Shown: positions 12,417 through 32,230, counted from the stretch's first letter. The stretch is 64,000 nt of DNA from Myxococcota bacterium (GCA_965228475.1 OZ245817.1:4352001-4416000); one strand, 5' to 3'. A program made the numbers and translations. Notes: generated by a model not told the origin, from the sequence alone.

Positions 12417-12433
12417 GATAATACCAAGGAGTT

Positions 12434-13063: not shown

Positions 13064-13209
13064 GTCACCTCCTCACCTTCGCCGCCCAACGGATCAGGCC
13101 TTCAGCAGCGCCGAGGGGCTGACACTCAGCGCTGCACCACCACGACCGACGCCAGGATCCTACCACGGCACTTTGTACCCGAGCCGATGGCGGCCGCTGC
13201 AAGGCCCTA

Positions 13210-13668
13210 CTAGACAGCCGGCCAACCAACCGGCCACTCCTCTATGTCTCGGAGCTCTGATGTGTAGGCAGCCTCGTTCGTCGCGACCTTGCTCTGGCAG
13301 TGAATCGCGCAGCGATGCATGGTATCGGTTCGGACTGACCGTCCGTCATTGAAGTACTGCTCGTTCGTCGTCCGATCCTGCCATCGAATCTCGCTAAACG
13401 AGAGCCTCGCCTCTAACGAGGCCTGAGTAAGGGCAGCTATCGGGATTCGGTTTGCCTCGAGATCCTCGAGAAGCCACAAGCGAAGCTCCTCCGCGATGGA
13501 GAGCTTAGGAATTGACCTACCCTCGAACGCACAGCTCCCAGACAGCACGTCCACCCGGATCGTGCCCGAGCCCAGCTCGACGAGTCGAGGCTTGGAACTG
13601 ATGAGACGCCAGCCACAGAACATGTGGCAGATGGTGTCTGCAGTGTGTTGGAGTCGTTTCCTTCGCAT
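13210..13668 (-). CDS. Cassette hypothetical protein
   Basis: ORF fills the cassette; ICHMFCGWRL; stop falls at the attC edge. Confidence 0.7.
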   Translation of the reverse strand: MRRKRLQHTADTICHMFCGWRLISSKPRLVELGSGTIRVDVLSGSCAFEGRSIPKLSIAEELRLWLLEDLEANRIPIAALTQASLEARLSFSEIRWQDRTTNEQYFNDGRSVRTDTMHRCAIHCQSKVATNEAAYTSELRDIEEWPVGWPAV

Positions 13669-13684
13669 CGGGTCTCGCCCGGCG

Positions 13685-13814
13685 GCCTAACGGATACGGC
13701 GCTCAGCTGCAGCCACGGCCATGAAGTTCAGCGGAGTGCCTAAGTGGAACCCAAATAGTACCAGGGTCCGATTGGACGGAGCTATTGGCTGTCAGCTACA
13801 GCACCTTGTTGGGC
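13685..13814 (-). repeat. attC, divergent family
   Basis: GCCCAAC aaggtgctgtagctgacagcc...ggctgcagctgagcgccgtatcc GTTAGGC. Confidence 0.9.
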
Positions 13815-13821
13815 GGCCGCT

Positions 13822-14313
13822 TTACTTGGGCGGATGAAAGCCAACCCGCCGCGCTACGGATCGAGGGCTTCGGAACAGAAAGATACCGATCGCGATGCCC
13901 ACCACCCCGGAGACCAGAGATCTGACGGATACAGCGGTCATATACCCGTGAAGATCGCTGGAGAGGACATTCATTAGGAGCGAAACGATGCCGACTGCGA
14001 GTGATATTCCAGAAGACACGAGTAGCCAGAGCCCTGCAATCGCAATGCCCGCGACGACCAGGGACTCCGTAGAGAGCTCCCCAGGGCCGGCGCTGGGAAA
14101 AGCACGGCGTGCTAGCTGCTCGTTCCTGACGACCAGATAGAGTCCAGGCACTGCCACGACAATCGCAACTACGACTGACCCACCGATCTGGAAGAAGAGC
14201 ATTTCGGAGTTCGAGCTTGTGTACTGGAACGCAGAACTGAGCGCAGAGAACACTCCCGACAAGGTGACATGCAGACCCACAAGAATGAAGCCGAGTCTCG
14301 CAGTATCGAACAC
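13822..14313 (-). CDS. Cassette membrane protein
   Basis: Four hydrophobic helices; architecture resembles 12548-13063. Confidence 0.7.
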   Translation of the reverse strand: MFDTARLGFILVGLHVTLSGVFSALSSAFQYTSSNSEMLFFQIGGSVVVAIVVAVPGLYLVVRNEQLARRAFPSAGPGELSTESLVVAGIAIAGLWLLVSSGISLAVGIVSLLMNVLSSDLHGYMTAVSVRSLVSGVVGIAIGIFLFRSPRSVARRVGFHPPK

Positions 14314-14474
14314 CGAGCCGCCTAACGGATCAGGCCTTCAGCGGCGCCGAGGGCGCTGACTCTCAACGCCGCACTACCGAGACCGACGCCAGAATCCTAC
14401 CACGCAGCGATTGGGCAGACGCCCTTGGCGTCTGCTGCAAGGCCTTGTTAGGCGGCGGATGGGCCAAGCAACGA

Positions 14475-15029
14475 TCACGACAGGTCTGGCATTCCGGCGG
14501 CGATGTTCCAAGCGGCGATCGCAGCTCCTGCCAGCAGCAGAACCGCATGCGTACCCGAGTGAGGCGAAGCTGCGAGAACGAGAGCTCCCCCCGCCGTGAC
14601 AGCGCTGGGAAGGTTCTTGGTCACGAGCAGCGGGTCGCCGAAGGCCAGAGACGGCCCAACCATCGATGTAGTTGCGCTGGCGGCGACGATGCCAAAGAGA
14701 ACACGGTGTCGGTCGAAGTAGTGACTTCGGAGGTCCGTGCCACCAGGCGGAGGAAAAGCGAGGTGTGCAAGGACGTAGAGCAAAACGGGACTCGCCAGGA
14801 TGAGGAGCAGCTGGCCAAAACCCCAGACCGCATGCGAACGAAGCTCCCACGCGTGCCACCAGACCTGGATCAATGTCAGGAGTATCAGGCTCGCGAGGAG
14901 CAGCGGCTGCCAAGCGGCTACCGTTACCTGCCGTTCCAGCACCGCATGGGAGAGTCCGGACAGGATCTTGGCCACGCCTAGGCCGACGACGATCGACTCC
15001 AGGACCATGATGAACTCGAAGAGCGACAC
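14475..15029 (-). CDS. Cassette membrane protein
   Basis: FEFIMVLESIVVGLGVAKIL and DLRSHYF; fills the cassette. Confidence 0.75.
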   Translation of the reverse strand: MSLFEFIMVLESIVVGLGVAKILSGLSHAVLERQVTVAAWQPLLLASLILLTLIQVWWHAWELRSHAVWGFGQLLLILASPVLLYVLAHLAFPPPGGTDLRSHYFDRHRVLFGIVAASATTSMVGPSLAFGDPLLVTKNLPSAVTAGGALVLAASPHSGTHAVLLLAGAAIAAWNIAAGMPDLS

Positions 15030-15165
15030 AGCTCCGCCGCCTAACGGATCAGGCCTTCAGCGGCGCCGAGGGCGCTGACAATCAGCGCTGCACCACTGCG
15101 GCCGACGCCAGAATCCTACCACGCCACTTTGGGCCCGAGCCCTTGGCGTCCACTGTAAGGCCTTG

Positions 15166-15612
15166 TTAGGCGGCTGCCCCCCGAAGTTCAAAGAAAGCCA
15201 AGACCGCAATGAATGCCAGAATGCCTCTCCCAAAGGCGAGGTATGCGGCCGCTGACAAAGCGACAAGCCAAGGCGGCGGCTCCTCTCCCGACTCGCCGAA
15301 TCCTGAGGCGAACCCTTCGGCGAAGTCGCGGGCGGGCCGCAGCCCTGTGTAGATGAGCGATACGGCAAGCGGGATCCCCGCCCAGGCGCGCCCCGCGCAG
15401 AGCAGTAGGGCGAGCCCGGCGTGGAGAATGAACCTTGCAGCGATTCCGAACTTCACGCCCATTGCTCGGCCTCGAGCACGGGGCGAATCGTCCTCGGGTT
15501 GGACCAATGGGAGCGCCGTGAGCCCCGGCGCCTCGACCAACGCGACAACGAGAAAGAGAGCAACGAGCCACAGCGGCGCGCCCCAGATCTCCCACCCGAT
15601 GGTTTCGGTCAC
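15166..15612 (-). CDS. Cassette membrane protein
   Basis: Hydrophobic; the stop is the TAA of R'' GCCTAAC. Confidence 0.7.
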   Translation of the reverse strand: MTETIGWEIWGAPLWLVALFLVVALVEAPGLTALPLVQPEDDSPRARGRAMGVKFGIAARFILHAGLALLLCAGRAWAGIPLAVSLIYTGLRPARDFAEGFASGFGESGEEPPPWLVALSAAAYLAFGRGILAFIAVLAFFELRGAAA

Positions 15613-15746
15613 CGAGGCCGCCTAACGGATCAGGCCTTCAGCGGCGCCAAGGGCGCTGACTCTCAGCGCTGCACCACCGCGGCCGACGCCAGAATCCTAC
15701 CACGGCACTTTGAGCCCGAGCCCTTGGCGTCCGCTGCAAGGCCTTG

Positions 15747-16148
15747 TTAGGCGGCTGGCTGGGCTGAGGCTCTCGCAGCCAATAGACGAGAAATCGTTGC
15801 AGCTACCGGAGCGACTGCGGAGGCAAGGAGCGCCCAGTGAGACAACGTAAGGTCACTTGGGCCGAGCAACCCAAGGTTGGAAGTGAATATCGGAATGTCC
15901 CGGATCGCTACGAGAACAAATACGACAATGAATGCCGCAAACAACAGGCGCCCATCTGAGCGAGCAATTGCCACACTCAGGCTCAGCTGGATACAAACAG
16001 ATACGACCGAGATTCCGACGATGAGGTCTGGAAATCCGAGAGCGCGAAAGGAGAGCACTCGGCAGAACTCGTTCGCAGCTGCCAGCGCACCCGCAGCGGA
16101 TGCAACGAGCCGCACCTTGTGACCGTAGTTGTGCCCCGCGGTGCTCAC
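15747..16148 (-). CDS. Cassette membrane protein
   Basis: Hydrophobic; stop lies in R''. Confidence 0.6.
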   Translation of the reverse strand: MSTAGHNYGHKVRLVASAAGALAAANEFCRVLSFRALGFPDLIVGISVVSVCIQLSLSVAIARSDGRLLFAAFIVVFVLVAIRDIPIFTSNLGLLGPSDLTLSHWALLASAVAPVAATISRLLAARASAQPAA

Positions 16149-16297
16149 GGCAAAGCTGCCTAACGGATCAGGCCTTCAGCAGCGCCGAGGGCGCTGACTC
16201 TCAACGCCGCGCCACCGAGACCGACGCCAGAATCCTACCACGCAGCAATTGGGCACGAGCCCTTGGCGTCTGCTGTAAGGCCTTGTTAGGCGGCTGG

Positions 16298-16645
16298 CTA
16301 GCTGGAAGGAAACCGTAGTTGCGAGAAAGCTCGTTCTTGGAATACCAAAACGAGACTCCGAGCGAACTGGAGCGCTTGGTGCTCTACAGCGCTCCGATCA
16401 AGCAAGTCGAGCTCCTGCTTTAGTTCGGAGACGAGGACGCGACTCGGCCTACCCAACTCGCTGAGGCTGGCATCCAGCCGCACCGAGAGAGTGTCTAGCC
16501 GGGCGGGAGTTGGGCCACCCGGATCGACTACGAGATGAGCGGATAGATGGGCCAGAGATTTGAGTAAGGCGCGGACCTTCGCGTTGAACTCAAGCTGTCT
16601 CAGTTCGGCAAGAGTCCTGGGTGGGAACCTCCTGAAGTCACACAC
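16298..16645 (-). CDS. Cassette hypothetical protein
   Basis: Only ORF spanning the cassette. Confidence 0.5.
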   Translation of the reverse strand: MCDFRRFPPRTLAELRQLEFNAKVRALLKSLAHLSAHLVVDPGGPTPARLDTLSVRLDASLSELGRPSRVLVSELKQELDLLDRSAVEHQALQFARSLVLVFQERAFSQLRFPSS

Positions 16646-16788
16646 CGAGTTGCCGCCTAACGGATCAGGCCTTCAGCAGCGCCGAGGGCGCTGAACCTCA
16701 ACGCCGCACTACCGAGACCGACGCCAGAATCCTACCACGCTGCCTTTGGGCAGACGCCCTTGGCGTCTGCTGCAAGGCCTTGTTAGGC

Positions 16789-17146
16789 GGCGGCTAACGT
16801 TCTCACTGCAAGAGGCGCGACGAAATAGGATTCTTGAACACGAAGCCGAGTGAGCCACCCGACCAGGGCTCAAACGAACACGACGTAGCGCGACGTAGGA
16901 CCCTCAGAGCCCGATGCCGCGCCCAGCCGAAGGAGCCGCAGCGAAGCCAGGCACCCCGAAGCCTGCCCCCCGAGGAGCCGGAGTGATTGCCTGCCGGAAC
17001 CGGTGCACGCCACCGAGCCGTGGAGCCGAGAACCCTGGAACGAGCCCGGCTCGAGGTAGCGCCTCACCATGAGCTCGCTGAAACCAGAAAGAAGAACGCT
17101 TCGGAAAGGCGAGCTGCACCTGGCTGAGGAAACCTGCAGGCAAGCC
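16789..17146 (-). other. ORF-less cassette, family A copy 1
   Basis: Only short low-complexity ORFs; near-identical to 22306-22663. Confidence 0.8.
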
Positions 17147-17297
17147 GCCTAACGGATCAGGCCTTCAGCGGCGCCAAGGGCGCTGACACTCAGCGCTGCG
17201 CCACCGTGGCCGACGCCAGAATCCTACCACGCCGCATTTGGGCAGGAGCCCTTGGCGTCCGCTGCAAGGCCTTGTTGGGCGGCGGGCTACCGCGAAG

Positions 17298-17543
17298 CTA
17301 GCCGCGGGGAGAACCAGTTGCAGCAGCTAGACGATCTCGCGCAGCTGCCAGAAGGTCTTGGTACTCGGGCTGGAGGGGTTGCACGAGGAGGCGTTCAAAC
17401 GCTGCGCAGAGATTCCAGAGCGCAGCTCTCTCTGCACCGTGCTCTACGGTGAGCGCGTCCTGCTCTGTGAACCTCGATACGAACTCGAAGAGGACCAGCG
17501 CTTCATCCTCGGTGAATCGGATCTCGACTTCACCCTGGGACAT
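17298..17543 (-). CDS. Cassette small hypothetical protein
   Basis: FTEDEALVLFEFVSRF...ERAALWNL; fills the cassette and has a ribosome-binding site. Confidence 0.75.
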   Translation of the reverse strand: MSQGEVEIRFTEDEALVLFEFVSRFTEQDALTVEHGAERAALWNLCAAFERLLVQPLQPEYQDLLAAARDRLAAATGSPRG

Positions 17544-17697
17544 GATTTTCCCTTCGCGCCGCCGCCCAACGGATCAGGCCTTCAGCAGCGCCGAGGGCGC
17601 TGACTCTCAACGCCGCACCACCGAGACCGACGCCAGAATCCTACCACGCAGCGTTTGGGCATGAGACCTTGGCGTCTGCTGGAAGGCCTTGTTAGGC

Positions 17698-18026
17698 GGC
17701 GGCTAACGTTCTCACTGCAAAGAGGCGCTGGATGCGCCTACACAATGACGCGCCGCTAACGGCTGCGACCTATCGTGACGCAACTCCCGCGCGCTTTGAC
17801 TGCCCACCCGAAGAAACCGGACCGACGCCAGACACCCCGGAGGTCGCCCCCGAGGAGCCGGCGTGATTGCCGGCCGGAACCGGTGCACGCTACCGAGCTG
17901 TGCAGCCGAGAACCCTGGAACGAGTTCGGCTCGAGGCAGCGCCTCACCATGGGCTCGCTGAAACCAGAAAGAAGAACGCTTCAGAAAGGCAAGCAGTAAC
18001 TGGCCGAGGGAACTTGCGGGCAAGCC
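17698..18026 (-). other. ORF-less cassette, family A diverged variant
   Basis: Shares both termini and the block ccccgaggagccgg...ctgaaaccagaaagaagaacgcttc with family A; reading frames are not conserved. Confidence 0.8.
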
Positions 18027-18168
18027 GCCTAACGGATCAGGCCTTCAGCAGCGCCGAGGGCGCTGGCTCTCAACGCTGCGCTACCGAGGCCGACGCCAGA
18101 ATCCTACCACGCAGCAATTGGGCACGAGCCCTTGGCGTCTGCTGGAAGGCCTTGTTAGGCGGCGGGCT

Positions 18169-18675
18169 CTAGCGGTTCTTGTCTTGGTTTTGATGGTTGA
18201 GGCTGCGAACGCCTGCCCGCGCGATTCCTCTCGCTACAGGCCCGCCACGTTGCTCAAGGTCTCGAAACGCGGCCCTGGCCACAACCTCATCAGGGGGCCC
18301 AGCGAAAGTCACTCTGAGCTCCGAATCCTCAGGAATATCGAACTCACCGAGGGCCGACTTGGCAGCATCGAGGACGGGCTCGAGACGCGCCATGGTTATG
18401 GACTCGAGCTTCTTCTTCTTGGGCGGGCTGGTGTGTGACTCTACGACTAGGTCAAAGACACCGTGAGAGACTCGCTCTCGCCGGAAGGAAAGAACATGCC
18501 GCCTCCGTGAATAGACTTGCATGTTCATACAATGAGACTGCTCGCTCAGAAGAGTCTCGAAGAAGACTCCCAGAGAGTCGGGACCCTCACATCGATGGCG
18601 AATAGGTTTGCCCAGCCACCACCACGTGATGGCGGCCATCAAGAAGACAGCTCCAATTGAGGCGAGCCACGTCAT
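18169..18675 (-). CDS. Cassette protein with N-terminal TM anchor
   Basis: ATG 8 nt after the core; fills the cassette. Confidence 0.65.
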   Translation of the reverse strand: MTWLASIGAVFLMAAITWWWLGKPIRHRCEGPDSLGVFFETLLSEQSHCMNMQVYSRRRHVLSFRRERVSHGVFDLVVESHTSPPKKKKLESITMARLEPVLDAAKSALGEFDIPEDSELRVTFAGPPDEVVARAAFRDLEQRGGPVARGIARAGVRSLNHQNQDKNR

Positions 18676-18823
18676 TCACGCCGCCTAACGGATCAGGCCT
18701 TCAGCAGCGCCAAGGGCGCTGACCTTCAACGCCGCACTACCGAGACCGACGCCAGAATCCTACCACGCAACATTTGGGCACGAGCCCTTGGCGTCTGCTG
18801 ATAGGCCTTGTTAGGCGGCGCGG

Positions 18824-19227
18824 CTATGACCATGAGCCAAACCAAGCCTTGTGAAACTCGAATTGCTCGGCGACCGTGCCTGGTACAACGTCAGGTCCGG
18901 TCTCGAAGATGTCCTTAGACACTCCGCCCGGCTCACCCATAGTGTTGACGTAGGCCTTCAGACCTCTCCCCATGTCGCGGGACATCGCCGAAGGCCAGAC
19001 GTTCTTGGCAGCTCCATAGCAGAGCAGTCTGTGCCCGGACGTTTCGATCGGCCTGCGAGCCCGTTGCAAGGACGCAAAGAAGTCTGACTCTGAGCCGCAC
19101 CGGTGATCTCACCGAAGCGAATGACAACGTTGCATGCAAAGCCAGCGGACCACCACTCCAGCCGAGCGCTCCCGGCGGATGAGTCGGCGCAGAGTACCGG
19201 CACCGTGGTGCGCTTTCGTTCACTCAC
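18824..19227 (-). pseudogene. Frameshifted cassette gene
   Basis: The N-half MSERKRTT...GEITGAA and the C-half ESDFFASLQRARR...CYGAAKNVWPSAMSRDMGRGLKAY are in different frames, joinable by a 1-nt indel near 19093. Confidence 0.65.
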
Positions 19228-19383
19228 CGCGTTCGACGCGCCGCCTAACGGATCAGGCCTTCAGCAGCGCCGAGGGCGCTGACTCTCAACGCCGCACTAC
19301 CGAGACCGACGCCAGAATCCTACCACGCCACTTTGGGCCCGAGCCCTTGGCGTCTGCTGTAGGGCCTTGTTGGGCGGCGGGCC

Positions 19384-19809
19384 CTAGAGTGAGCAGGCAG
19401 AAACCAGAGCTAGCCGAGATGGAACGCCGGGCACCCACCCTCTAGCGAGAACGAGAGACAAGATGAAGGCTGCAAGGACCGCCAGCGCGACCGCAGCACC
19501 TTCCTGGATTCCCCTCGATCGGTCGCTGATCGCAGCTCTGCGCTCACTGCCCCGGAGAATCGAAAAGTTGACGGCTGCGATGAAAGCTATGACGAGGAGC
19601 AAAGCCAGACGGCTTGGCCAGACGCATGCGATACCTGACCACGCCAACAGGATTATGAGTGACTGCAGCAAGAGCAGCTGAAGCACGCAATGGCACGCAC
19701 CAACGGAGATGATCGGATTCAGGTCGTCGCTATTGAGGTAGTGCCGACCAAAGAGACGAGAGAGTGAATCGTAGACTCGCCCGATCAAGGGTTCCGCGAC
19801 GCCGCCCAA
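19384..19809 (-). CDS. Cassette membrane protein
   Basis: Hydrophobic; TTG start lies inside the core site. Confidence 0.55.
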   Translation of the reverse strand: MGGVAEPLIGRVYDSLSRLFGRHYLNSDDLNPIISVGACHCVLQLLLLQSLIILLAWSGIACVWPSRLALLLVIAFIAAVNFSILRGSERRAAISDRSRGIQEGAAVALAVLAAFILSLVLARGWVPGVPSRLALVSACSL

Positions 19810-19931
19810 CGGATCAGGCCTTCAGCGGCGCCAAGGGCGCTGACACTCAGCGCTGCACCACCGAGGCCGACGCCAGGATCCTACCACGGCACTCTTGGGC
19901 CCAAGCCCTTGGCGTCCGCTGGAAGGCCTTG

Positions 19932-20336
19932 TTAGGCGGCTCCCACGGTCCCGGAGATGCGCAGCAGAGCCGGTGCGGGGCACGAGAAGCTCGCTGTGAG
20001 ATTCCAGCCGGTGGAGTCCTTGGGTCGAAGACTCGAACTGTCGAGCGCCAGTCTGATACGAGCGTGACCCTGAGGAGCTATTGCGCCGGACAGAAAGAAC
20101 CTCTTGTCAGTTGACTGCAAGGAGCACTCGCCCTTGAGGCGTTTCTGGCAGTGTTTGGCAGCCGCGAAGAACGCGTCGAGGTCACGATTTCTGAACTCAA
20201 CCTCAATTGATGAGGACACGCCCCGAACCTGGACCCTGGCCTTTCCGGTCCGGCGACTGCCGTCTCCGGGCGGATGGCTAGGCAACGAGACTTTGACCTG
20301 CTCGTTCTGGCCGACAATGAAATCGAGCCGGCTCAC
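19932..20336 (-). CDS. Cassette hypothetical protein
   Basis: Fills the cassette; stop lies in R''. Confidence 0.65.
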   Translation of the reverse strand: MSRLDFIVGQNEQVKVSLPSHPPGDGSRRTGKARVQVRGVSSSIEVEFRNRDLDAFFAAAKHCQKRLKGECSLQSTDKRFFLSGAIAPQGHARIRLALDSSSLRPKDSTGWNLTASFSCPAPALLRISGTVGAA

Positions 20337-20503
20337 ACCACCTGCCGCCTAACGGATCAGGCCTTCAGCGGCGCCAAGGGCGCTGACACTCAGCGCTGCA
20401 CCACCGCGACCGATGCCAAAATCCTACCACGACACATTTGATCAGAAGCCCTTGGCGTCCGCTGCAAGGCCTTGTTAGGTGGCTGGCGACCCCAGCCCTC
20501 GCT

Positions 20504-20863
20504 CTAAAGGCTTGCCCCATGCCCTTGGCGCTCAAAGAGCAAGGCAACGGCCCCTACAAGGAACGCCGCTGGAGTGAGCAACAGCTCTGGTGAGGGTATG
20601 GCGATGAATCTTCCGAGCTCTCCGAATGACCCCACGCCGAAGACGAACAAGAAGAAGCCGTCTGTCTTTCGGTCGCGCGCGGTTGCGAAAATGAAGCCGA
20701 TGCCTATTCGCAGCAGTCCACCCAGGAGCCACATTGCCGAAAGATCGACTGGAGCGTCGAGCCTCCACGCACCGAACGCATCCCACGCATCTGCGAATCC
20801 GGAACCGATGCCCAGGCCGCCCGCTGCCACTCGAAGCGCTCCCGGCGTCACCGTTCCAGCCAC
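20504..20863 (-). CDS. Cassette membrane protein
   Basis: Hydrophobic; GTG overlaps the core GTTAGGTG. Confidence 0.6.
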   Translation of the reverse strand: MAGTVTPGALRVAAGGLGIGSGFADAWDAFGAWRLDAPVDLSAMWLLGGLLRIGIGFIFATARDRKTDGFFLFVFGVGSFGELGRFIAIPSPELLLTPAAFLVGAVALLFERQGHGASL

Positions 20864-21006
20864 CTAACGGATCAGGCCTTCAGCGGCGCCAGGGGCGCTG
20901 ACACTCAGCGCTGCGCCACCGTGACCGATGCCAAAATCCTACCACGCCGCATTTGATCACGAGCCCTTGGCGTCCGCTGCAAGGCCTTGTTGGGCGGCTG
21001 CTCAAG

Positions 21007-21294
21007 CTATTTCTTGATGTCGTTGGGGCAAGCTTTTTCTGGCTCGCTACCAGCATAAATTGTGCCGTCTTGGCAGGTGATGACAGTTCCGCGCTGCGCA
21101 GCGGGGGACGCGCTCCCGCTACTTGCAGAACCGGAGTTCGACTGACACGCACGGTGCTTCGCGTGGTTGTGTACGTGGTAGCCGCCACGCTTGCGATCAT
21201 GGTGCCCACCGCACCGATCCGTTCCGCCGCTGTGAGCTAGCGCGACATGGGGTGAAACTAGGGAAAGACAGAGGGAGAGAACGGCGAATCGCAT
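21007..21294 (-). CDS. Secreted YHYH-domain small protein
   Basis: Signal peptide ending ALA, then HSGGTDRCGGHHDRKRGGYHVH. Confidence 0.75.
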   Translation of the reverse strand: MRFAVLSLCLSLVSPHVALAHSGGTDRCGGHHDRKRGGYHVHNHAKHRACQSNSGSASSGSASPAAQRGTVITCQDGTIYAGSEPEKACPNDIKK

Positions 21295-21448
21295 CTCATG
21301 CCGCCCAACGGATCAGGCCTTCAGCAGCGCCGAGGGCGCTGACTCTCAACGCCGCACTACCGAGGCCGACGCCAGAATCCTACCACGCAGCGTTTGGGCA
21401 CGAGCCCTTGGCGTCTGCTGCAAGGCCTTGTTAGGCGGCCAGGCGAGC

Positions 21449-21718: not shown

Positions 21719-21855
21719 GCCGCCTAACGGATCAGGCCGTCAGCAGCGCCGAGGGCGCTGACATTCAGCGCTGCGCCACCGCGACCGACGCCAGAATCCT
21801 ACCACGCTGCGTTTGGGCATAAGCCCTCGGCGTCTGCTGCACGGCCTTGTTGGGC

Positions 21856-22171: not shown

Positions 22172-22305
22172 GCCCAACGGATCAGGCCTTCAGCAGCGCC
22201 GAGGGCGCTGAACCTCAACGCCGCACTACCGAGACCGACGCCAGAATCCTACCACGCTGCCTTTGGGCAGACGCCCTTGGCGTCTGCTGCAAGGCCTTGT
22301 TAGGC

Positions 22306-22663: not shown

Positions 22664-22797
22664 GCCTAACGGATCAGGCCTTCAGCAGCGCCGAGGGCGC
22701 TGTCTCTCAACGCCGCACTACCGAGACCGACGCCAGAATCCTACCACGCAGCATTTGGGCAGAAGCCCTCGGCGTCTGCTGGAAGGCCTTGTTGGGC

Positions 22798-24725
22798 AGC
22801 AGCCACGAACCAACCTCCCCTCTTGAGCGCAGACTGTGCTCAAGAGACCGGAGCCTCCAGAAACGACAACGACAGATCTGGACGAGTGAGCCACTCGAGC
22901 ACCGGCGATGAGCAGCCAAGGCGGCGACCTAGGATGAAACCAGGCCCTTGCCCTGCCCCGCTCGGCTTGGCGGCTACGACGCCAGACGCCGACAAAGCCA
23001 CGGTGCGCAACGCACCGGGAGACCGAGACAGATGCGCCGAGGAATCAGCCGAGAATCCTAGTGCGAACTCGGTCTGAGATCTGAGCCGAAGATCTGAACA
23101 AAGAACCCGAAACCAAGCCGCTCTCGAGCAAGGAGCGTTCACTCAGGATGCGCAGCAGAACGCTGCCCAACGGATCAGGCCTTCAGCAGCGCCGAGGGCG
23201 CTGACTCTCAACGCCGCACTACCGAGACCGACGCCAGAATCCTACCACGCACCAATTGGGCATGAGCCCTTGGCGTCTGCTGATAGGCTTTGTTGGGCAG
23301 CTGTCACGAACAGCCACCACCCAACGCAGGCCGTGCTCACGAAGAACCTGAGCCTCCAGAAAGAACAGCGACAGATCTGGCCGAGTGAGCCGCCAGAACA
23401 GCACCGACGAGCAGCCGAAGCAGAGGAGACGACCCGCCAAGGGCCGAACAGAGGATGAAACCAGGCTCTTGCCCTGCCCCGCTGCGCCTGGCCGCCACGA
23501 CGCCAGACGCCGACAGAGCCACGGTGCGCAACGCACCGGACGACCGAAGCACAGGCGCCGAGAAACCAGCCGAGAATCCTAGTGCGAACTCGCCATGTGA
23601 CCTGGGCCGAAGATCTGAACAAAGAACCCGAAACCAAGCCGCTCTCGGGCAAAGAGCGTGAACTCAGGATGCGCAGCAGATCGCTGCCCAACGGATCAGG
23701 CCTTCAGCGGCGCCGAGGGCGCTGACACTCAGCGCTGCACCACCGTGGCCGACGCCAGAATCCTACCACGAGACTTTGAACCCGAGCCCTTGGCGTCCGC
23801 TGCAAGGCTTTGTTGGGCAGCTGTCACGAACAGCCACCACCCAACGCAGCCCGTGCTCACGAGGAACCTGAGCCTCCAGAAAGACAACGACAGATATGGG
23901 CGAGTGAGCCACAAGAGCTGCGCCAGCGAGCAGCCGAAACAAAGGCGACGAGCTCCCGGGGCTCGAACCGAGGATGAAACCAGGCTCTTGCCCTGCCCCG
24001 CTCGGCCTGGCCGCCACGACGCCAGACGCCGACAAAGCCACAGTGCGCAACGCACCGGACGACCGAAACAGATGAGCCGAGAACTCAGCCGAGAATCCTA
24101 GTGCGAACTCGCCGTGCGATTCGGGCCGAAGACCTAAACAGAGAACCCGAAACCGAGCCGCTCTTGGGCAAGGAGCGTGAACCCAGGATGCGCAGCAGAT
24201 CGCTGCCCAACGGATCAGGCCTTCAGCAGCGCCGAGGGCGCTGACTCTCAACGCCGCACTACCGAGACCGACGCCAGGATCCTACCACGCAGCATTTGGG
24301 CACAAGCCCTTGGCGTCTGCTGAAAGGCTTTGTTGGGCAGCTGTCACGAACGGCCACCACCCAACGCAGGCCGTGCTCACGAGGAACCTGAGCCTCCAGA
24401 AAGAACAACGACAGATCTGGCCGAGTGAGCCGCCAGAGCAGCACCGACGAGCAGCCGAAGCAGAGGCGACGACCTGCCAAGGGCCGGACAGAGGAGGAAC
24501 CCAGGCCCTTGCCCTGCCCCGCTCGGCCTGGCCGCAACGACGCCAGACGCCGACAAAGCCACGGTGCGCAACGCACCGGACGACCGAAACAGATGCGCCG
24601 AGAAATCAGCCGAGAATCCTAGTGCGAACTCGCCATGTGACCTGGGCCGAAGATCTGAACAAAGAACCCGAAACCAAGCCGCTCTCGGGCAAGGAGCATG
24701 AACTCAGGATGCGCAGCAGATCGCT
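22798..24725 (-). other. Four consecutive ORF-less cassettes, family B (22798-23164, 23299-23685, 23819-24204, 24339-24725)
   Basis: Homologous 367-387 bp bodies, each with its own attC; indels break all reading frames between copies. Confidence 0.85.
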
Positions 24726-24859
24726 GCCCAACGGATCAGCGTTAAGCGGCCGGCAACAGCGCCGACCGACTCCGCCGAGACACCGAAGTATGCCGCCAGA
24801 CGGCACCCAAGGTCAATTGAACGCAGCTGTTGACGGTCCGCTTCAACGCTTTGTTGGGC
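24726..24859 (-). repeat. attC, divergent family
   Basis: GCCCAAC aaagcgttgaagcggaccgtcaacagc...gctgttgccggccgcttaacgctgatcc GTTGGGC. Confidence 0.9.
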
Positions 24860-24894
24860 GGCACGCGCTCCTCCCGGCCGAGTGTAAGGGAAGG

Positions 24895-25509: not shown

Positions 25510-25670
25510 GCTGTGAACCGTGCCGCCCAACGGATCAGGCCTTCAGCAGCGCCGAGGGCGCTGACTCTCAGCGCTGCACTACCGAGACCGACGCTAGGAT
25601 CCTACCACGCGGCGTTTGGGCAGATGCCCTTGGCGTCTGCTGCAAGGCCTTGTTAGGCGGCCGGGCGCGC

Positions 25671-26312
25671 CTAGGCCGAGCTGCTCACGAAGGTCGCGAG
25701 GTTCCATGTGCCGTGAGCAAAGACCGCAGGAACGACGCTCCTAGTGTGGACTCGAGCAGCCGACAGGACTGCACCGAGAGCAGCCAGCGTGAGAAGAGTG
25801 GTGGGGTTCTCGGCGCCATGTAAGAGCAGCCAGGGGACGAGGGCCAGAACAGAAGCGAGGACTTCACCTCCAACCGCTGGTGCAAGAATGGACGTTGCGA
25901 AGCCTCGGTAGAGGAACTCTTCGATGGCAGGGCCAACTACGATAGCCACGATCGCCAGAAGAAGAGGCGCAGCTTCTGCGTTGAGCGAAGCAGTGCGTTC
26001 TGAGCTGGAGCCGATCGCTGTGCAAGCGAGCCACGTGAGCCCGCCCGCCAGCGACCAGAGCACTACGCCCCGCGCCGATACGTGGCGGACGGCGAAAACC
26101 GCCCGAACGCTGCACCACTGCGCGCCAACGAGTGCGGCTGCGACGACAGCCATGGCGCCACTGACGACGATGGAGACCAGGAACACGTCCGACCCGCTCC
26201 CGCCGACCAACCCGGAGAGAATGCTTGGGGTCAGCAACAGGAGAGCGAAGTGGGCGGCCACAACGCTGGCGACGGCGAGAAGACGACGATGCTGTGGTTC
26301 GTGCGCGGTCAA
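25671..26312 (-). CDS. CPBP (Abi/CAAX) intramembrane glutamic endopeptidase
   Basis: EEFLYRG, LLH and AHGTWN motifs. Confidence 0.88.
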   Translation of the reverse strand: MTAHEPQHRRLLAVASVVAAHFALLLLTPSILSGLVGGSGSDVFLVSIVVSGAMAVVAAALVGAQWCSVRAVFAVRHVSARGVVLWSLAGGLTWLACTAIGSSSERTASLNAEAAPLLLAIVAIVVGPAIEEFLYRGFATSILAPAVGGEVLASVLALVPWLLLHGAENPTTLLTLAALGAVLSAARVHTRSVVPAVFAHGTWNLATFVSSSA

Positions 26313-26470
26313 TAGGCCGCCTAACGGATCAGGCCTTCAGCAGCGCCGAGGGCGCTGACTCTCAACGCCGCACTACTGAGACCGCCGCCAGAATCCTACC
26401 ACGCAGCGTTTGGGCATGAGCCCTTGGCGTCTGCTGCAAGGCCTTGTTGGGCGGCGGCAGGAGATGACAC

Positions 26471-26824
26471 TCACGCATCCTCTTCCTGGAACGCGGCGAT
26501 CTCCCGTAAAAATTGATCGAGCTTCGGATCGAAGAGGCCCTTCACGAGGCAGAGGATCGAGACCGTGGTGGTGTGGTCATCCCACTCCTCAGGTCTCGTG
26601 CGAGAGGCATTGATGTTGAGCAACCCCTGGCCGGCCTTCCTTGGACCCTCCCAGATTGGATCAACCGTGTAGGTCAGAAAGAGCTGACGCCCATACGATG
26701 CGCGGCGGGACTCAAGCAACCACTGCTCATCGCACCACCAGTCGGGCGAAGAGTCCTCGATCGAGACGAGCTCCCAACCTCCGTGGACCAGTCCAGAGAG
26801 AATTCTCTCCTTGTACTTCGCCAC
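26471..26824 (-). CDS. Cassette hypothetical protein
   Basis: DWWCDEQWLLES...FLTYTVDPIWEG; fills the cassette. Confidence 0.7.
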   Translation of the reverse strand: MAKYKERILSGLVHGGWELVSIEDSSPDWWCDEQWLLESRRASYGRQLFLTYTVDPIWEGPRKAGQGLLNINASRTRPEEWDDHTTTVSILCLVKGLFDPKLDQFLREIAAFQEEDA

Positions 26825-26982
26825 GCGCCGCCGCCCAACGGATCAGGCCTTCAGCGGCGCCAAGGGCGCTGACACTCAGCGCTGCTCCACCGTGGCCGAC
26901 GCCAGAATCCTACCACGACACTTTGAACCCGAGCCCTTGACGTCCGCTGCAAGGCCTTGTTGGGCTGCAAGGCGAGAACGCC

Positions 26983-27366
26983 CTAGAACAAGGCGAGCAC
27001 CCGAGGGCCGAACACGAGAAGCCCAATGAAGACTGCCCCGATGGCCGCGATGAGAACTGCACCAGCTGCGACGTCCTTCGCGCGCTCTACCATTGGATGG
27101 AACTCAGGGGACGCGACGTCACAGAGGGACTCGAAGGCCGTATTGAGGGCCTCGGCGCTCCACACCGCAACGATGGCGAGGGTTAGAGCGAGCCACTCAC
27201 CTCGGCCGACCTGAAAATAGAGACCGGCCGCCACGACTACGACTGAGGCCAGCGCGTGGATCCAGGCGTTGTGCTGAGACCTCAGCATGACGCCGATGCC
27301 ACGCAACGCGTACTGAATGCTGCGGAGGCGCTCGGTTAGGCTGAATCGTCCCAGCTTGCTGCCCAA
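26983..27366 (-). CDS. dgkA: Diacylglycerol/undecaprenol kinase family protein
   Basis: AEALNTAFE and AKDVAAGAVL motifs; TTG start lies within the core. Confidence 0.9.
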   Translation of the reverse strand: MGSKLGRFSLTERLRSIQYALRGIGVMLRSQHNAWIHALASVVVVAAGLYFQVGRGEWLALTLAIVAVWSAEALNTAFESLCDVASPEFHPMVERAKDVAAGAVLIAAIGAVFIGLLVFGPRVLALF

Positions 27367-27544
27367 CGGATCAGGCCTTCAGCGGCGCCAAGGGCGCTGA
27401 CACTCAGCGCTGCGCCACCGTGGCCGACGCCAGGATCCTACCACGCCACTTTGGGCCCGAGCCCTTGGCGTCCGCTGTAAGGCCTTGTTAGGTGGCTGCC
27501 CGAGGGAACTCAGGCTCAACTCGAGCGTAAGCGGAGAACTCACC

Positions 27545-27778
27545 TTAGACGAGAAGAAGTGCCGCTATTGCGAGAAGGGTTGCTCCCCCCAGGAACACAC
27601 ATACGATTTCTTGACGGGCCGAGACTGCCTTAGGTGGGTAGTGTCCGAGCGAAACGACGCGCAAGACAACGAGACCAACGAAACTGCAGGCGCCTATGAC
27701 CCCCGCGGCGGCCGCCTCTAGCAGACCAACTAGTGCCTGGAGCACGTAGACGACGAGTTCGAGCAGATCGATGAGCAC
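27545..27778 (-). CDS. Cassette small membrane protein
   Basis: Hydrophobic 77-aa ORF containing VSLGHYPP. Confidence 0.55.
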   Translation of the reverse strand: MLIDLLELVVYVLQALVGLLEAAAAGVIGACSFVGLVVLRVVSLGHYPPKAVSARQEIVCVFLGGATLLAIAALLLV

Positions 27779-27969
27779 GAGACGGCACCAGTGGTGTCAG
27801 CGCAGCGTCCGATAGTCGCCTTTGCCACCTAACGGATCAGGCCTTCAGCAGCGCCGAGGGCGCTGACTCTCAACGCCGCACCACCGAGGCCGACGCCAGA
27901 ATCCTACCACGCAGCGTTTGGGCATGAGCCCTTGGCGTCTGCTGATAGGCCTTGTTAGGTGGCTGAGCT

Positions 27970-28317
27970 CTAGCGGCTCGACGAGGCTGACACGAGAGCG
28001 AACACCGAAAGGCACCCGAGCCCCATGAGGAAATAGCCCGCGCGATACGCTCGACGGTGCCACGGTGACATGCTGGACGACCCGAAAGAGATCCGAACTC
28101 CAGACCGGACGACGGATAGCTTGGCGACCAAGAAGAGCGCGACACCTACGAAGAACGAACCAAGAGCGAGGTACGAGACGTCGCGGGGAGCTTGGTGTGC
28201 GTTGACGACGAACAGGGCCAAGACGAGGCCTACGGCTAGCGGCATCAAGACGATGAAGAAGTTGGCGAGAGCTTCCCGCTGGCCCACGGTGACGAACTCC
28301 TTCGTTCGACCAGCCAC
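27970..28317 (-). CDS. Cassette membrane protein
   Basis: LFLVAKLSV...ISFGSSSM...YRAGYFLM; GTG overlaps the core. Confidence 0.7.
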   Translation of the reverse strand: MAGRTKEFVTVGQREALANFFIVLMPLAVGLVLALFVVNAHQAPRDVSYLALGSFFVGVALFLVAKLSVVRSGVRISFGSSSMSPWHRRAYRAGYFLMGLGCLSVFALVSASSSR

Positions 28318-28443
28318 CTAACGGATCAGGCCTTCAGCGGCGCCGAGGGCGCTGACACTCAGCGCTGCACCACCGCGGCCGACGCCAGGATCCTACCACG
28401 CCGCATTTGGGCAGGAGCCCTTGGCGTCCGCTGCAAGGCCTTG

Positions 28444-28902
28444 TTAGGCAGCACGACTCGAAGTCTCTTGCCACATGCGAAAGAGGATGAAGGCTGCGAC
28501 GCACGCCATCAGGTCTGCGCCCACGAGCTGAACGGGCCTGGGTTCAGGCCACCATGAGAGGGCTGCATGGAAGCCGAAGAGCGAGAACCGCGGAAGCACA
28601 GCCATGGGTTCTGGGGAGAGGCGGAGGAAGATGGAGAAGATCAGTCCCGTAGAGAACTCGTAACGAAACCCACCGAGCACCACGGCGGGCACCGAGAGAA
28701 CCTGCACGACAAGCGAGCCAAGGATACCGGAACGAGAACGATAGAGACGAACGCCGAAGGCGAGACCGGCGGCGAAGAGCGAGAGCTGGAGAACAAGGAG
28801 AACCCAATAGAGCGGATGCGCCTTGGCAGGCACGGCGACCAATGACGCGGCGACAAGACCGAGGCCTAGCGTAGAGCCGAGGCACTGCTCAAGTGCGATC
28901 AC
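28444..28902 (-). CDS. Cassette membrane protein
   Basis: Hydrophobic; stop lies in R''. Confidence 0.6.
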   Translation of the reverse strand: MIALEQCLGSTLGLGLVAASLVAVPAKAHPLYWVLLVLQLSLFAAGLAFGVRLYRSRSGILGSLVVQVLSVPAVVLGGFRYEFSTGLIFSIFLRLSPEPMAVLPRFSLFGFHAALSWWPEPRPVQLVGADLMACVAAFILFRMWQETSSRAA

Positions 28903-29075
28903 ACGAACTAAGCGGCCATGACGTTCCAGCGTGCTGCCTAACGGATCAGGCCTTCAGCAGCGCCGAGGGCGCTGACCTTCAACGCCGCACTACCGAGACC
29001 GACGCCAGAATCCTACCACGCAGCGTTTGAGCATAAGCCCTTGGCGTCTGCTGGAAGGCCTTGTTGGGCTGCGCG

Positions 29076-29333
29076 CTACCGAGCAGCTGAAGGAAAGCCC
29101 CGAAGCAACCCGGCCACGCTCAAGTCCTCATCGAGGTCCGGCCAATGAATGCCCGCACCGTCTCCGAGGAACTCGTAGTTCTCTCTCTGCTCGACGGTTG
29201 CCCGAGCAAGCCTTGGAAACCAAGCAAGGGGAGCAGCAACACGACGGCCATCCGCAAGAACGACCATGAGCTCATCTTCTGAGAAAGAGAGCTCCTTAAC
29301 GCGGGGATCAACGCTCGGCTGCGAAGAACTCAT
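29076..29333 (-). CDS. DUF2442 domain protein (toxin-antitoxin partner)
   Basis: LADGRRVAAPLAWFPRL and GIHWPDLDEDLSV motifs. Confidence 0.9.
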   Translation of the reverse strand: MSSSQPSVDPRVKELSFSEDELMVVLADGRRVAAPLAWFPRLARATVEQRENYEFLGDGAGIHWPDLDEDLSVAGLLRGFPSAAR

Positions 29334-29550
29334 GCCAAGCCTCCTCGAACTGGTCACGGTGCTCCTCAACAAGACGCTCGATCCGACGTAGCTCGTGAGC
29401 AGCGAACCCGACGGAAGATGCTAGCGCGACAGGCCGAACCCAGAACTTGCACAAGGCTTGCTCACGCTGAACATGGATGTGGACCGGCTCTAACCCCTCG
29501 TTTGAAAAGAAGAAGAACCGATAAGGCCCGATTCGTTTAACCGTGGGCAT
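29308..29550 (-). CDS. DUF4160 domain protein (toxin-antitoxin partner)
   Basis: MPTV...GPYRFFFFSNEGLEPVHIHV...KFW...AWHEFF; overlaps the DUF2442 gene. Confidence 0.9.
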   Translation of the reverse strand: MPTVKRIGPYRFFFFSNEGLEPVHIHVQREQALCKFWVRPVALASSVGFAAHELRRIERLVEEHRDQFEEAWHEFFAAER

Positions 29551-29722
29551 GGGATGAGCCTACCGAAGCCGCCGCGCTGCCCAACGGATCAGGCCTTCAG
29601 CGGCGCCAAGGGCGCTGACACTCAGCGCTGCACCACCGTGGCCGACGCCAGAATCCTACCACGGCACTTTGAGCCCGAGCCCTTGGCGTCCGCTGCAAGG
29701 CCTTGTTAGGCGGCACGCCTGC

Positions 29723-29977
29723 TCACTCGTAGCCCTTGCCGGCCAGAAGGAACTGAGCGAACTGCCGCCAGAGATTCGAGGTGTCAATCCCAGTGGACGC
29801 CCCGAAATCTGAATCTTCTGCCCAGGCGTGACCGGCTTCGAGAAACTCCTCGATCGTGCCGCTCTCCCACCCCGACGCACCGGCGGCGCAGTCTCGCTCC
29901 ATGGCCTTCGCGAACGCCAAGAAAGTCCGAGCGTCCCGAACGCCAGCAACAAGGTCTTCGGGCCTGCCCGATGCCAC
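29723..29977 (-). CDS. Cassette small hypothetical protein
   Basis: WESGTIEEFLEA...W...FAQFLLAGKGYE. Confidence 0.75.
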   Translation of the reverse strand: MASGRPEDLVAGVRDARTFLAFAKAMERDCAAGASGWESGTIEEFLEAGHAWAEDSDFGASTGIDTSNLWRQFAQFLLAGKGYE

Positions 29978-30113
29978 TTCGTGCCGCCTAACGGATCAGG
30001 CCTTCAGCAGCGCCGAGGGCGCTGACTCTCAACGCCGCACTACCGAGACCGACGCCAGAATCCTACCACGCAGCAGTTGGGCAGGAGCCCTTGGCGTCTG
30101 CTGCAAGGCCTTG

Positions 30114-30413
30114 TTAGGCGGCGGGCCCCGGCGCCTCGAACTCTCGGAGAATGGCCTTCAACTTCTCTTCTCGAAGCAGCAGGGAGTAGTTGAGGGCGGC
30201 GATGCCGAGAAGAGATGCCGCTGCGGGGAGACTCGAGAAGCTCAGTACCCGAACTCCAGTGAAGCGTTCGAGCGCGAGAACGCCGAACACCAAACCAATC
30301 ATCTCGGCCGCGGAGAGTAGGAACCAAGCCATATCTTCAGGTGCGTAGTAGCGGGGCGAGCTAGGCGAGAGGAGATAGAGCCGGTAGAACAAATAGCGGT
30401 ATCCACGAAGCAC
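30114..30413 (-). CDS. Cassette membrane protein
   Basis: YRYLFYRLY plus two TM helices; stop lies in R''. Confidence 0.65.
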   Translation of the reverse strand: MLRGYRYLFYRLYLLSPSSPRYYAPEDMAWFLLSAAEMIGLVFGVLALERFTGVRVLSFSSLPAAASLLGIAALNYSLLLREEKLKAILREFEAPGPAA

Positions 30414-30501
30414 CCGTTCCCGCCGCCTAACGGATCAGGCCTTCAGCAGCGCCGAGGGCGCTGACTCTCAACGCCGCACTACCGAGACCGACGCCAGAAT
30501 C

Positions 30502-31023
30502 CTACCACGCAGCAGTTGGGCACGAGCCCTTGGCGTCTGCTGATAGGCCTTGTTGGGCGGCTGGAACAATCCGCTGGCTTACGCTGACTACAACAGGCGA
30601 GTCCTCACTGAGAGTCAGAAACACGAGGAAGCGACTGGTTAGCCACGACAGGTACCTGCGAAATCTCGTTCCGGGCGAGGGCGTCCCTGGGCCGAACTGA
30701 GAACTCAGGGCTGACTCGTACTCACCGAATGCCAGCCCAGCCTCCTCATCGCTGGCGAAGGAGAGGTTGACGCCGACTGAGATCACGGAGCCGTCTCTGC
30801 AGAAGTAGGCGATCTCGGCTTCCCGATTGCCATGAGTTCCCGAGAACATCAAGATCGAGTCGCCGATCTCTGACGGCGATGAACCCTTGAAGCGCGACCC
30901 TTCGCGCCGCTCAGCGTCGAGGATCGCAGCGCAATCTTCGCCCAAACCGACGCTGCGCAGTTGATAGCTCTCGCCGTTATCGGATACGAGCATGGCCAGG
31001 GCTACTGTGAGTTCTCGAATCAA
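30502..31023 (-). CDS. Cassette hypothetical protein reading into its own attC
   Basis: The ORF continues ~57 nt into attC 30425-30558. Confidence 0.55.
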   Translation of the reverse strand: MIRELTVALAMLVSDNGESYQLRSVGLGEDCAAILDAERREGSRFKGSSPSEIGDSILMFSGTHGNREAEIAYFCRDGSVISVGVNLSFASDEEAGLAFGEYESALSSQFGPGTPSPGTRFRRYLSWLTSRFLVFLTLSEDSPVVVSVSQRIVPAAQQGLSADAKGSCPTAAW

Positions 31024-31167
31024 GCGCTGCCCAACGGATCAGGCCTTCAGCGGCGCCAAGGGCGCTGACACTCAGCGCTGCGCCACCACGGCCGACGCCA
31101 GAATCCTACCACGACACTTTGAGCCCGAGCCCTTGGCGTCCGCTGAAAGGCCTTGTTAGGCGGCGGG

Positions 31168-31689
31168 CTATTCGACCTCTGGCGTTCGGGAAACCTCTCT
31201 TCCGCCTTCATAGGTAACGGCGGTTCGGGCCGATCCGTCCGGCTCGTAGAACCGCCACACGCCGACCCGTTTGCCGACATCATGACGGCCATCCGACTTG
31301 AGGGAACCATTGGGGTGCCAAGTGCGAAAGACGCCATGCAGCTCGTTGGAACGCCACTCGGCGAGGATCTTCTTCGTTCCGTTCGGGTACCAGTGCGTGG
31401 CCAACTGTTCGCCTGAGCCGAGGTGCCGCCTTTCGGATTCGGCGCGGCCATTCGAGTCAAAGGACACCCACGAACCAGACTCGACTCCCTTGCGGTGCCA
31501 GCCAATCGTTTGAAGGTGACCGGAGTCGTCGAAGTGCAGGAGTTGGCCCTCCAGCGAACCGTCCGGCCAAGTACAGCCAATTGTGCCGTTCGTCTCGTGT
31601 AGCGAGGTTCCGCTCGGGCAGCGAAGAACTGCCTCACTTGCACATCCTACGGCGAGGATTGAGAGAGTGACCGCGAGCGAACGAATGAT
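31168..31689 (-). CDS. MORN-variant repeat (YwqK-like) predicted lipoprotein with no canonical start codon
   Basis: HWYPNGTK, TWHPNGSLK and GVWRFYEPDG repeats; the frame is open upstream to IIRSLAVTLSILAVGC. Confidence 0.75.
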   Translation of the reverse strand: MIRSLAVTLSILAVGCASEAVLRCPSGTSLHETNGTIGCTWPDGSLEGQLLHFDDSGHLQTIGWHRKGVESGSWVSFDSNGRAESERRHLGSGEQLATHWYPNGTKKILAEWRSNELHGVFRTWHPNGSLKSDGRHDVGKRVGVWRFYEPDGSARTAVTYEGGREVSRTPEVE

Positions 31690-31847
31690 ACTTCCCGCCG
31701 CCTAACGGATCAGGCCTTCAGCAGCGCCGAGGGCGCTGACATTCAACGCTGCACTACCGAGACCGACGCCAGAATCCTACCACGCAGCATTTGGGAATGA
31801 GCCCTTGGCGTCTGCTGCAAGGCCTTGTTGGGCTGCGGGCTACAGAG

Positions 31848-32159: not shown

Positions 32160-32169
32160 GAGATCATCG

Positions 32170-32200
32170 TGCCGCTGCCCAACTAGTTTATCGATCGGCC
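32170..32200 (-). other. attI candidate
   Basis: Minus strand gatcgataaactaG|TTGGGC (core 32177-32183) starts cassette 1 and matches its R'' GCCCAAC (31827-31833); it is not preceded by a main-family attC arm. Confidence 0.8.
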
Positions 32201-32230
32201 TCCGAGTCTCTCCCGGAATCAGCCTTGTTC

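Follow-up and report, generated by a model that had tools for sequence, protein, structure and literature searches.

In the standard model of integrons, cassettes are promoterless and depend on a single promoter, Pc, and distal cassettes form a silent reserve (PMC11014356, PMC8876359; published work is cited here from excerpts of the papers). Michael and Labbate (2010, PMC2945992) described a sigma-70-type promoter which overlaps the attC at the junction of cassettes 20 and 21 of Vibrio sp. DAT722 and drives the next cassette, and they argued for the expression of distal cassettes from intra-array promoters. Here, we describe the attC sites of a 64,000-nucleotide stretch of a Myxococcota genome (GCA_965228475.1, OZ245817.1:4352001-4416000; "the window", with positions counted from its first letter). 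The window contains a complete chromosomal integron, that is, intI and an array of about 38 cassettes, both on the - strand. The apex of its attC sites is probably a sigma-70-type promoter with an extended -10 element that reads into the next cassette. This reading is based on five concordant lines of sequence evidence. Seen directly are the motif and its strand, the way in which it is conserved, its agreement with host promoters and the absence of space for a promoter within the cassettes.

The DAT722 case resembles the present array, as a promoter at an attC in a large chromosomal array drives the next cassette. It concerned one promoter at one junction, attributed to diverse cassette-borne promoters, whereas the element described here has a fixed place in nearly every attC and in related attCs of 22 other genomes. 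In Vibrionaceae superintegrons, Blanco et al. (2024, PMC11014356) described gene-less cassettes that carry promoters; one of the mapped starts lay inside an attC (cassette F2). These are likewise intra-array promoters in sedentary chromosomal integrons, but their activity is tied to particular gene-less cassettes with scattered starts, and the excerpted text proposes no conserved attC promoter. The repeats of Vibrio cholerae are similar in their species-typical attCs of about 120-130 nucleotides (nt), their long variable terminal structure (VTS) and their dozens of cassettes (PMC8876359, PMC5027507). In the excerpted text, no function is assigned to the conservation of those apexes, whereas the conserved positions reported here coincide with promoter contacts.

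In group IIC-attC introns, a promoter at the attC also restores expression of the downstream cassette, but it comes from the inserted mobile intron and not, as here, from the attC sequence itself (PMC3001079). The reverse integrons of Treponema denticola have intI co-directional with the cassettes and extra promoters within the array (PMC6557892). Those promoters lie in cassettes without an open reading frame (ORF), whereas the box-bearing attC type described here occurs in both inverted and classical layouts. A 2022 review (PMC8876359) names in its excerpted text cassette-borne, intron-borne and ORF-less-cassette promoters and none built into the attC, and the excerpts of PMC12772301 contain nothing on attC-borne promoters. 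No conserved promoter built into the attC apex was found in full-text searches of the literature, with subscription journals outside the coverage.

The apex box in the attC sites of the array

The main attC family was aligned from 32 intact copies of 133-134 nt, which all differ from one another and have a mean column identity of 92%. CGTGGTAGGAT occupies columns 50-60 and is the longest invariant run of the 66-column apex. The 16 columns ahead of it (34-49) are the most variable part of the whole attC, as a previous reading of the DNA (the sequence-only reading) had stated for the neighbouring 15 or so nt. TGG stands ahead of TAGGAT in 32/32 intact copies, so that the hexamer always carries the TG of an extended -10 element. 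The box had been called invariant, and in the 32 intact copies it is; the invariant apex block extends further, however (CGTGGTAGGATYCTGGCGTCGG), and the L'/R' arm contains an invariant run, GGCCTGATCCGTT, which is longer than the apex block.

With at most one mismatch, CGTGGTAGGAT has 37 matches against 0.35 expected (maximum of 2 in 100 shuffles). Its exact form has 34 copies, all of them on the - strand, which is the cassette-sense strand, and 33 of these lie within 13084-31833, in agreement with the 33 main-family copies that had been counted there. The pattern TGnTAnnnT occurs 40 times on the - strand vs once on the + strand between positions 5000 and 34000. From the end of the hexamer to the G|TT crossover, we measured 68 nt, the distance proposed before. 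A two-hexamer promoter scan of 27000-32400 gave 0 sites, as expected for a promoter without a -35 element, and was counted in favour of the promoter reading. The cassette-sense strand is evident from the stop codons directly before R''. The longest ORF is in sense orientation in 28 of 38 cassettes, and the first possible start lies 3-33 nt past R'.

A covariance model was built from the main-family alignment and then used for searching. In the window, it adds one near-intact copy (13084-13215), four divergent attCs (24726-24859, 13685-13814, 11320-11454 and 10462-10596) and two relics (12408-12535 and 9926-10027). The intact main-family entries listed below rest on motif count, alignment and covariance-model matches.

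31700-31833 (-): main-family attC, box TGGTAGGAT at 31774-31782
31029-31161 (-): main-family attC, box 31103-31111
30425-30558 (-): main-family attC, box 30499-30507
29986-30119 (-): main-family attC, box 30060-30068
29579-29711 (-): main-family attC, box 29653-29661
28936-29069 (-): main-family attC, box 29010-29018
28316-28449 (-): main-family attC, box 28390-28398
27827-27960 (-): main-family attC, box 27901-27909
27361-27493 (-): main-family attC, box 27435-27443
26833-26965 (-): main-family attC, box 26907-26915
26319-26452 (-): main-family attC, box 26393-26401
25525-25658 (-): main-family attC, box 25599-25607
24726-24859 (-): divergent attC without the box, TTGACC-N18-CATACT at about 24787-24816; class also in four loci of other genomes
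24205-24338 (-): main-family attC, box 24279-24287
23686-23818 (-): main-family attC, box 23760-23768
23165-23298 (-): main-family attC, box 23239-23247
22664-22797 (-): main-family attC, box 22738-22746
22172-22305 (-): main-family attC, box 22246-22254
21722-21855 (-): main-family attC, box 21796-21804
21303-21436 (-): main-family attC, box 21377-21385
20862-20995 (-): main-family attC, box 20936-20944
20347-20480 (-): main-family attC, box 20421-20429
19804-19937 (-): main-family attC, box 19878-19886
19243-19375 (-): main-family attC, box 19317-19325
18683-18816 (-): main-family attC, box 18757-18765
18027-18160 (-): main-family attC, box 18101-18109
17564-17697 (-): main-family attC, box 17638-17646
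17147-17280 (-): main-family attC, box 17221-17229
16655-16788 (-): main-family attC, box 16729-16737
16158-16291 (-): main-family attC, box 16232-16240
15620-15752 (-): main-family attC, box 15694-15702
15039-15171 (-): main-family attC, box 15113-15121
14320-14453 (-): main-family attC, box 14394-14402
13685-13814 (-): divergent attC, TGGTACTAT at 13755-13763
13084-13215 (-): main-family attC with degenerate R'', box 13157-13165
12408-12535 (-): truncated attC relic, box mutated to TGGCAGGAT (12479-12487); a separate TGGTATTAT at 12418-12426, at the expected 3' arm
11320-11454 (-): divergent attC, TGGTGCCAT without TA; longest ORF of the next cassette antisense
10462-10596 (-): divergent attC, TGGTAGCCT at 10538-10546
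9926-10027 (-): attC relic, both outer arms lost, TGGTAGGAT kept (9982-9990)
8590-8598 (-): TGGTACTGT in an attC-like relic
7431-7439 (-): TGGTAGCCT in an attC-like relic, 5' arm recognisable, 3' arm not

The sequence-only reading had named -10-like elements in three divergent attCs, and these are found as TGGTAGCCT (10538-10546), TGGTACTAT (13755-13763) and TTGACC-N18-CATACT (in 24726-24859); a fourth divergent site (11320-11454), however, has TGGTGCCAT, which lacks the TA. The two relic boxes that it had listed, TGGTACTGT at 8590-8598 and TGGTAGCCT at 7431-7439, are both present.

As a separate observation, the attC at 11320-11454 is the sole array site in which the box is reduced by the TA, and it precedes the sole cassette (10596-11320) with a clear long ORF in antisense; this is a single case.

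The identity of these sites as attCs is read from the sequence and the predicted fold, and their recombination by IntI is likewise predicted. All 32 intact copies have the inverse core sites GCCYAAC (R'') and GTTRGGY (R'). On the R'' side, the core is followed by an unpaired A, an L box of 7 base pairs (bp), a bulged base, a 6-bp helix, a bulged A and a 10-bp helix. The opposite arm consists of the partner strands of the helices, an unpaired GATCC and R'. Along this long stem, pairing holds in 96.1% of 1120 cells vs 22.9-44.7% with the partners slid. Five pairs have changed on both sides; the 6-bp helix covaries, with A-U in 19 copies and G-C in 12 at column 21/111. Two single-base bulges, at columns 16 and 23 of the top strand, are unpaired and lie as extrahelical bases on the 3' arm of the + strand fold, and the consensus fold is better on the + strand (-26.5 vs -20.1 kcal/mol). 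Hence, we take the + strand as the recombined bottom strand, which agrees with the ORF direction.

The central spacer is lopsided in all main-family attCs (e.g., 31700-31833; columns 8 and 123-127), with one base (A) on the R''/L'' side vs five (GATCC) on the L'/R' side. This GATCC is invariant in the window and nearly invariant across the order. The lopsided spacer, 1 nt vs 5, differs from Vibrio cholerae-type repeats (PMC8876359, PMC5027507), and the attC literature, as excerpted, gives a spacer of five to six bases on each arm.

Host promoters and related attCs across the order

Ahead of the tRNA genes of the host, -10 elements such as TAGACT, TAGGTT, TAGCTT, TAGAAT and TAGCCT are found along with others, and these promoters follow TAGnnT, TAnnnT or TGGTATGCT. 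CGTGGTATGCT precedes a tRNA-Leu, GTGGCATACT a tRNA-Pro and CATACT a tRNA-Glu. For gene-start statistics, we considered up to 150 nt upstream of crude ORF calls and left out the two integron regions. TGnTAnnnT was co-oriented with the gene in 116 cases vs anti-oriented in 23. No such bias was seen for the control patterns TGnTCnnnT (110/97), TGnTAnnnC (19/33) and TGnCAnnnT (43/35). The frequency of G at -14 of TAnnnT sites was 0.56 in co-oriented vs 0.30 in anti-oriented sites, and exact TGGTAGGAT also stands ahead of ordinary genes. As far as sequence statistics tell, the host polymerase uses TGnTAnnnT sites. A TTG at -35 distance accompanies only 5 of the 116 co-oriented sites; therefore, housekeeping promoters seem to be largely -35-independent in this genome. 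Because host promoters mostly lack a -35 element, its absence from the attC box would be the rule in the genome and not a weakness.

Among 151 genomes of the same Myxococcota order, 87 (the present genome counted) match the covariance model, in 46 of 65 genera. To count the motif without using it for detection, we employed an arm-only finder, which considers the core sites and two helices. Over the 5-Mb genome, it returned 33 sites in the window, three in a second cluster and four stray matches. Its census of 32 fetched loci gave 107 distinct attCs, which come from 25 loci, 22 other genomes and 8 families. In the 107 apexes, TGnTAnnnT is present in 61 on the top strand and in 4 on the bottom strand (shuffled mean 2.7, maximum 8); the corresponding numbers for GnTAnnnT are 80 and 9 (shuffled mean 13.3, maximum 23).

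In an alignment of 87 attCs, the G, G, T and A of the box have frequencies of 0.94, 0.92, 0.94 and 0.87, and the T five places past the A has 0.86. The remaining apex is near-random, with many columns at a majority of 0.3-0.5. Position counts were taken from the 79 of 107 attCs with GGTA, a selection which fixes the G at -14 (79/79). In this set, -15 is T in 60, -10 is G in 66 and -7 is T in 75, and positions -9 and -8 are free (commonest base in 41 and 29, respectively). As judged from these counts, the conservation profile of the GGTA attCs is that of an extended -10 element.

The distance between the box and the attC end depends on the length class: it is about 36 nt in attCs of 114-115 nt and ~155 nt and 70-78 nt in those of 130-137 nt, with the box always on one and the same strand. 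Among the fetched loci with intI, two with the box-bearing attC type (L005 and L100) have a co-directional intI like that of the window, and three (L004, L102 and L109) have a divergent one. The proposed tie of the box to inverted integrases therefore does not hold: the box is a feature of the attC type and not of the layout. As the long attC type is found in both layouts, the integrase orientation has flipped within one attC lineage. At 80 loci with relatives of intI (50-59% identity), the model had only 15 weak matches, mostly attCs of 60-78 nt in classical layout, which are uninformative on the motif.

Alternative readings and the proposed mechanism

Several points weigh against the promoter reading or limit its numbers. 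A second block, CTGGC(R), occupies columns 62-67 (e.g., 31762-31767, - strand), 1-2 nt past the hexamer with a 0/1-nt indel. It is conserved like the box (GGC at 0.90, 0.95 and 0.89 in the 87 aligned attCs, L001-L112), and no counterpart of it was seen downstream of ordinary host -10 sites. Hence, there is constraint beyond a -10 element. Within the array, the box is the longest invariant apex run; across the genomes, CTGGC is its equal in conservation. The G at -13 is also fixed. An extended -10 element does not require a G at -13. Moreover, both the frequency of recombination and the choice of strand can depend on the apex (VTS), as published work shows (PMC5027507). The host statistics rest on crude gene calls (3164 ORFs, 75% of the genome). 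Since the attCs are related to one another, their counts overstate independence, and the loci were chosen from matches to a model which includes the box, a mild ascertainment bias. attCs without the box were readily found despite that model.

Finally, 27 of the 107 attCs lack GnTAnnnT. Other promoter forms are found in many such sites in the same apex region and on the same strand: TTGACC-N18-CATACT at the 24726 site of the window and in four other loci, TGGCATACT in three box-less attCs and TGGCATCAT in two. TTGACA-N17-GAGACT or GACACT is present in two more box-less attCs, several others have TGTAnnnT forms, and in about half a dozen of the 27, no promoter form was seen. The rescue pattern GN[TC]ANNNT also matches 32 of 107 shuffled apexes. 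As loose patterns are this common by chance, the alternative forms are only suggestive; the full -35/-10 pairs fall outside the loose patterns.

The main competing explanation is that the apex blocks serve recombination or bind a protein, possibly alongside a promoter. If the apex blocks were kept for recombination (bottom-strand fold, stability, strand choice or contact with IntI or a host factor), the likeness to a promoter would be incidental, which we consider unlikely. Such a role would cover CTGGC and a weaker YCAAT block in the apex, both unexplained by a -10 element, and main-family GGTAGGA agrees by eye with the R' core GTTAGGC at 5/7 positions. According to Nivina et al. (2016, PMC5027507), the apex influences strand choice via nucleotide skew, and inversion of the VTS altered recombination frequency and strand selectivity in some attC sites; the same work, however, reports that the integrase does not bind the VTS. 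Against the recombination reading, conservation falls precisely on -15/-14, -12/-11 and -7 and leaves the middle free, the box shifts from about 36 to about 75 nt from R' between classes, and box-less classes carry unrelated promoter forms. A consistent pairing partner for CTGGC or the box, sought by eye within the apex in the 87-site alignment, was seen for neither block. The relics without arms (9926-10027, 8590-8598 and 7431-7439), few as they are, keep the box.

TGGTA and CTGGC are about one helical turn apart, and a DNA-binding protein could bind there, for example one which represses or silences the array, whether or not a promoter is present as well. The two conserved blocks contain TGG and are separated by 10-12 nt, and CTGGC is not general downstream of host -10 sites. 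Yet the spacing varies (GG-N9-GC in 30, N10 in 28, N11 in 15 and N12 in 5 of 79), the 114-115-nt class has the box without CTGGC and no candidate protein was identified, which makes this reading quite improbable. The same spacing speaks against a sigma-54 promoter with GG at -24 and GC at -12, to which we give hardly any credence. In sigma-54 promoters, GG and GC are exactly 10 nt apart (TGGCAC-N5-TTGC). The main family does read TGGTAGGATTCTGGC, i.e., GG-N10-GC, but only 28 of 79 GGTA attCs have the N10 spacing, none has TGC at -14 to -12 and the 114-115-nt class is without any GC; this candidate was rejected on spacing. It is also very improbable that the box is an ancestral leftover of a common attC type with no present function. 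All these attCs are homologous, and homogeneous attC repeats are known from chromosomal integrons (PMC8876359), but the box positions G, G, T, A and T are kept at 0.86-0.94 in an otherwise near-random apex, and the strand bias is 61 to 4.

We therefore return to the extended -10 promoter as the preferred reading. Of the claim that the attC apex is a promoter, the strand, the conservation at sigma contacts and the host match stand, and CTGGC is the part which a -10 element leaves unexplained. The use of the box by RNA polymerase, the start position and the promoter strength are inferred from these patterns. In the proposed mechanism, the attC would have two jobs. Its arms (R''/L'' and L'/R', with the two bulged bases of the + strand) would fold as the recombination site for IntI, and its apex, (T)G-G-TAgnnT on the cassette-sense strand, would serve as an extended -10 element without a -35. 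The housekeeping RNA polymerase would start about 6-8 nt past the hexamer, near the conserved C-purine step of CTGGCR; as a guess, CTGGC may set the start site through this step, 6-7 nt past the hexamer. Transcription would then cross the 3' half of the attC, about 61 nt, and enter the next cassette, whose start codon lies a few to about 30 nt past R'. With a promoter in each attC, every cassette would have its own transcript, whatever its distance from the integrase end.

A related idea, that RNA started in the apex escapes the hairpin and frees the ribosome-binding region, was tried and dropped. With predicted start codons, the region -20..+3 had a mean unpaired probability of 0.39 in apex-started vs 0.35 in read-through RNA, and the former value was higher in 12 of 18 cassettes, which is no clear effect.

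More tentatively, the attC of this Myxococcota order may combine recombination site and constitutive promoter in one module, so that arrays are expressed regardless of position. If so, each newly inserted cassette would equip its follower in the array with a promoter, and a cassette excised as a circle would express its gene from the attC that it carries. The uniform apex of chromosomal attC repeats would then have its first functional explanation in selection on the promoter. Large chromosomal arrays would be expressed gene banks in which cassette order matters less, and the cost and benefit of holding cassettes would need rethinking. This could possibly be a general, overlooked feature of sedentary integrons.

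Integron layout and neighbouring features

The cassette array runs from 31833 down to about 10000 as a tandem array of single-gene cassettes beside intI, and decayed remains reach about 7400. At the integrase end, two further features were assigned:

32362-33336 (-): intI, integron integrase (IntI-type tyrosine recombinase), upstream of the cassettes on the same strand (inverted layout)
32177-32183 (-): GTTGGGC, candidate core for the attI crossover, past the intI stop and ahead of the first cassette ORF (31848-32159)

The intI product matches the Pfam families Phage_integrase (6.4e-31) and Phage_int_SAM_4 (5.6e-30). GTTGGGC is a candidate for the attI crossover by its sequence. TAGACT at 32231-32236 (-) also lies between the intI stop and the first cassette ORF. 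Because an identical hexamer precedes two tRNA genes, we propose TAGACT as a candidate Pc.

Identical sequence stands directly before the attC in two groups of three copies each, one at 16655-16788, 17564-17697 and 22172-22305 and the other at 23165-23298, 23686-23818 and 24205-24338, and cassettes 17 and 28 have an equal ORF pattern. Hence, the array holds duplicated or paralogous cassettes.

No Rfam family matched anywhere in the window at gathering thresholds. ARAGORN, run on the whole genome, reported an odd 94-nt "tRNA-???" within a cassette at 26041-26134 (-), positions 4378041-4378134 of the whole genome (G000); the call is probably spurious.

At the far end of the array, TGTTAGGAT at 6205-6213 (-) is about 60-100 nt ahead of a chromosomal ORF (5075-6109) and looks like an ordinary promoter of the box type rather than the relic of an attC. 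A second attC cluster, which lies about 440 kb away from the integron and has no integrase (G000:C1:3912628-3917864, locus L012), has the same family and the same box, with three sites by the arm search and more by the covariance model.

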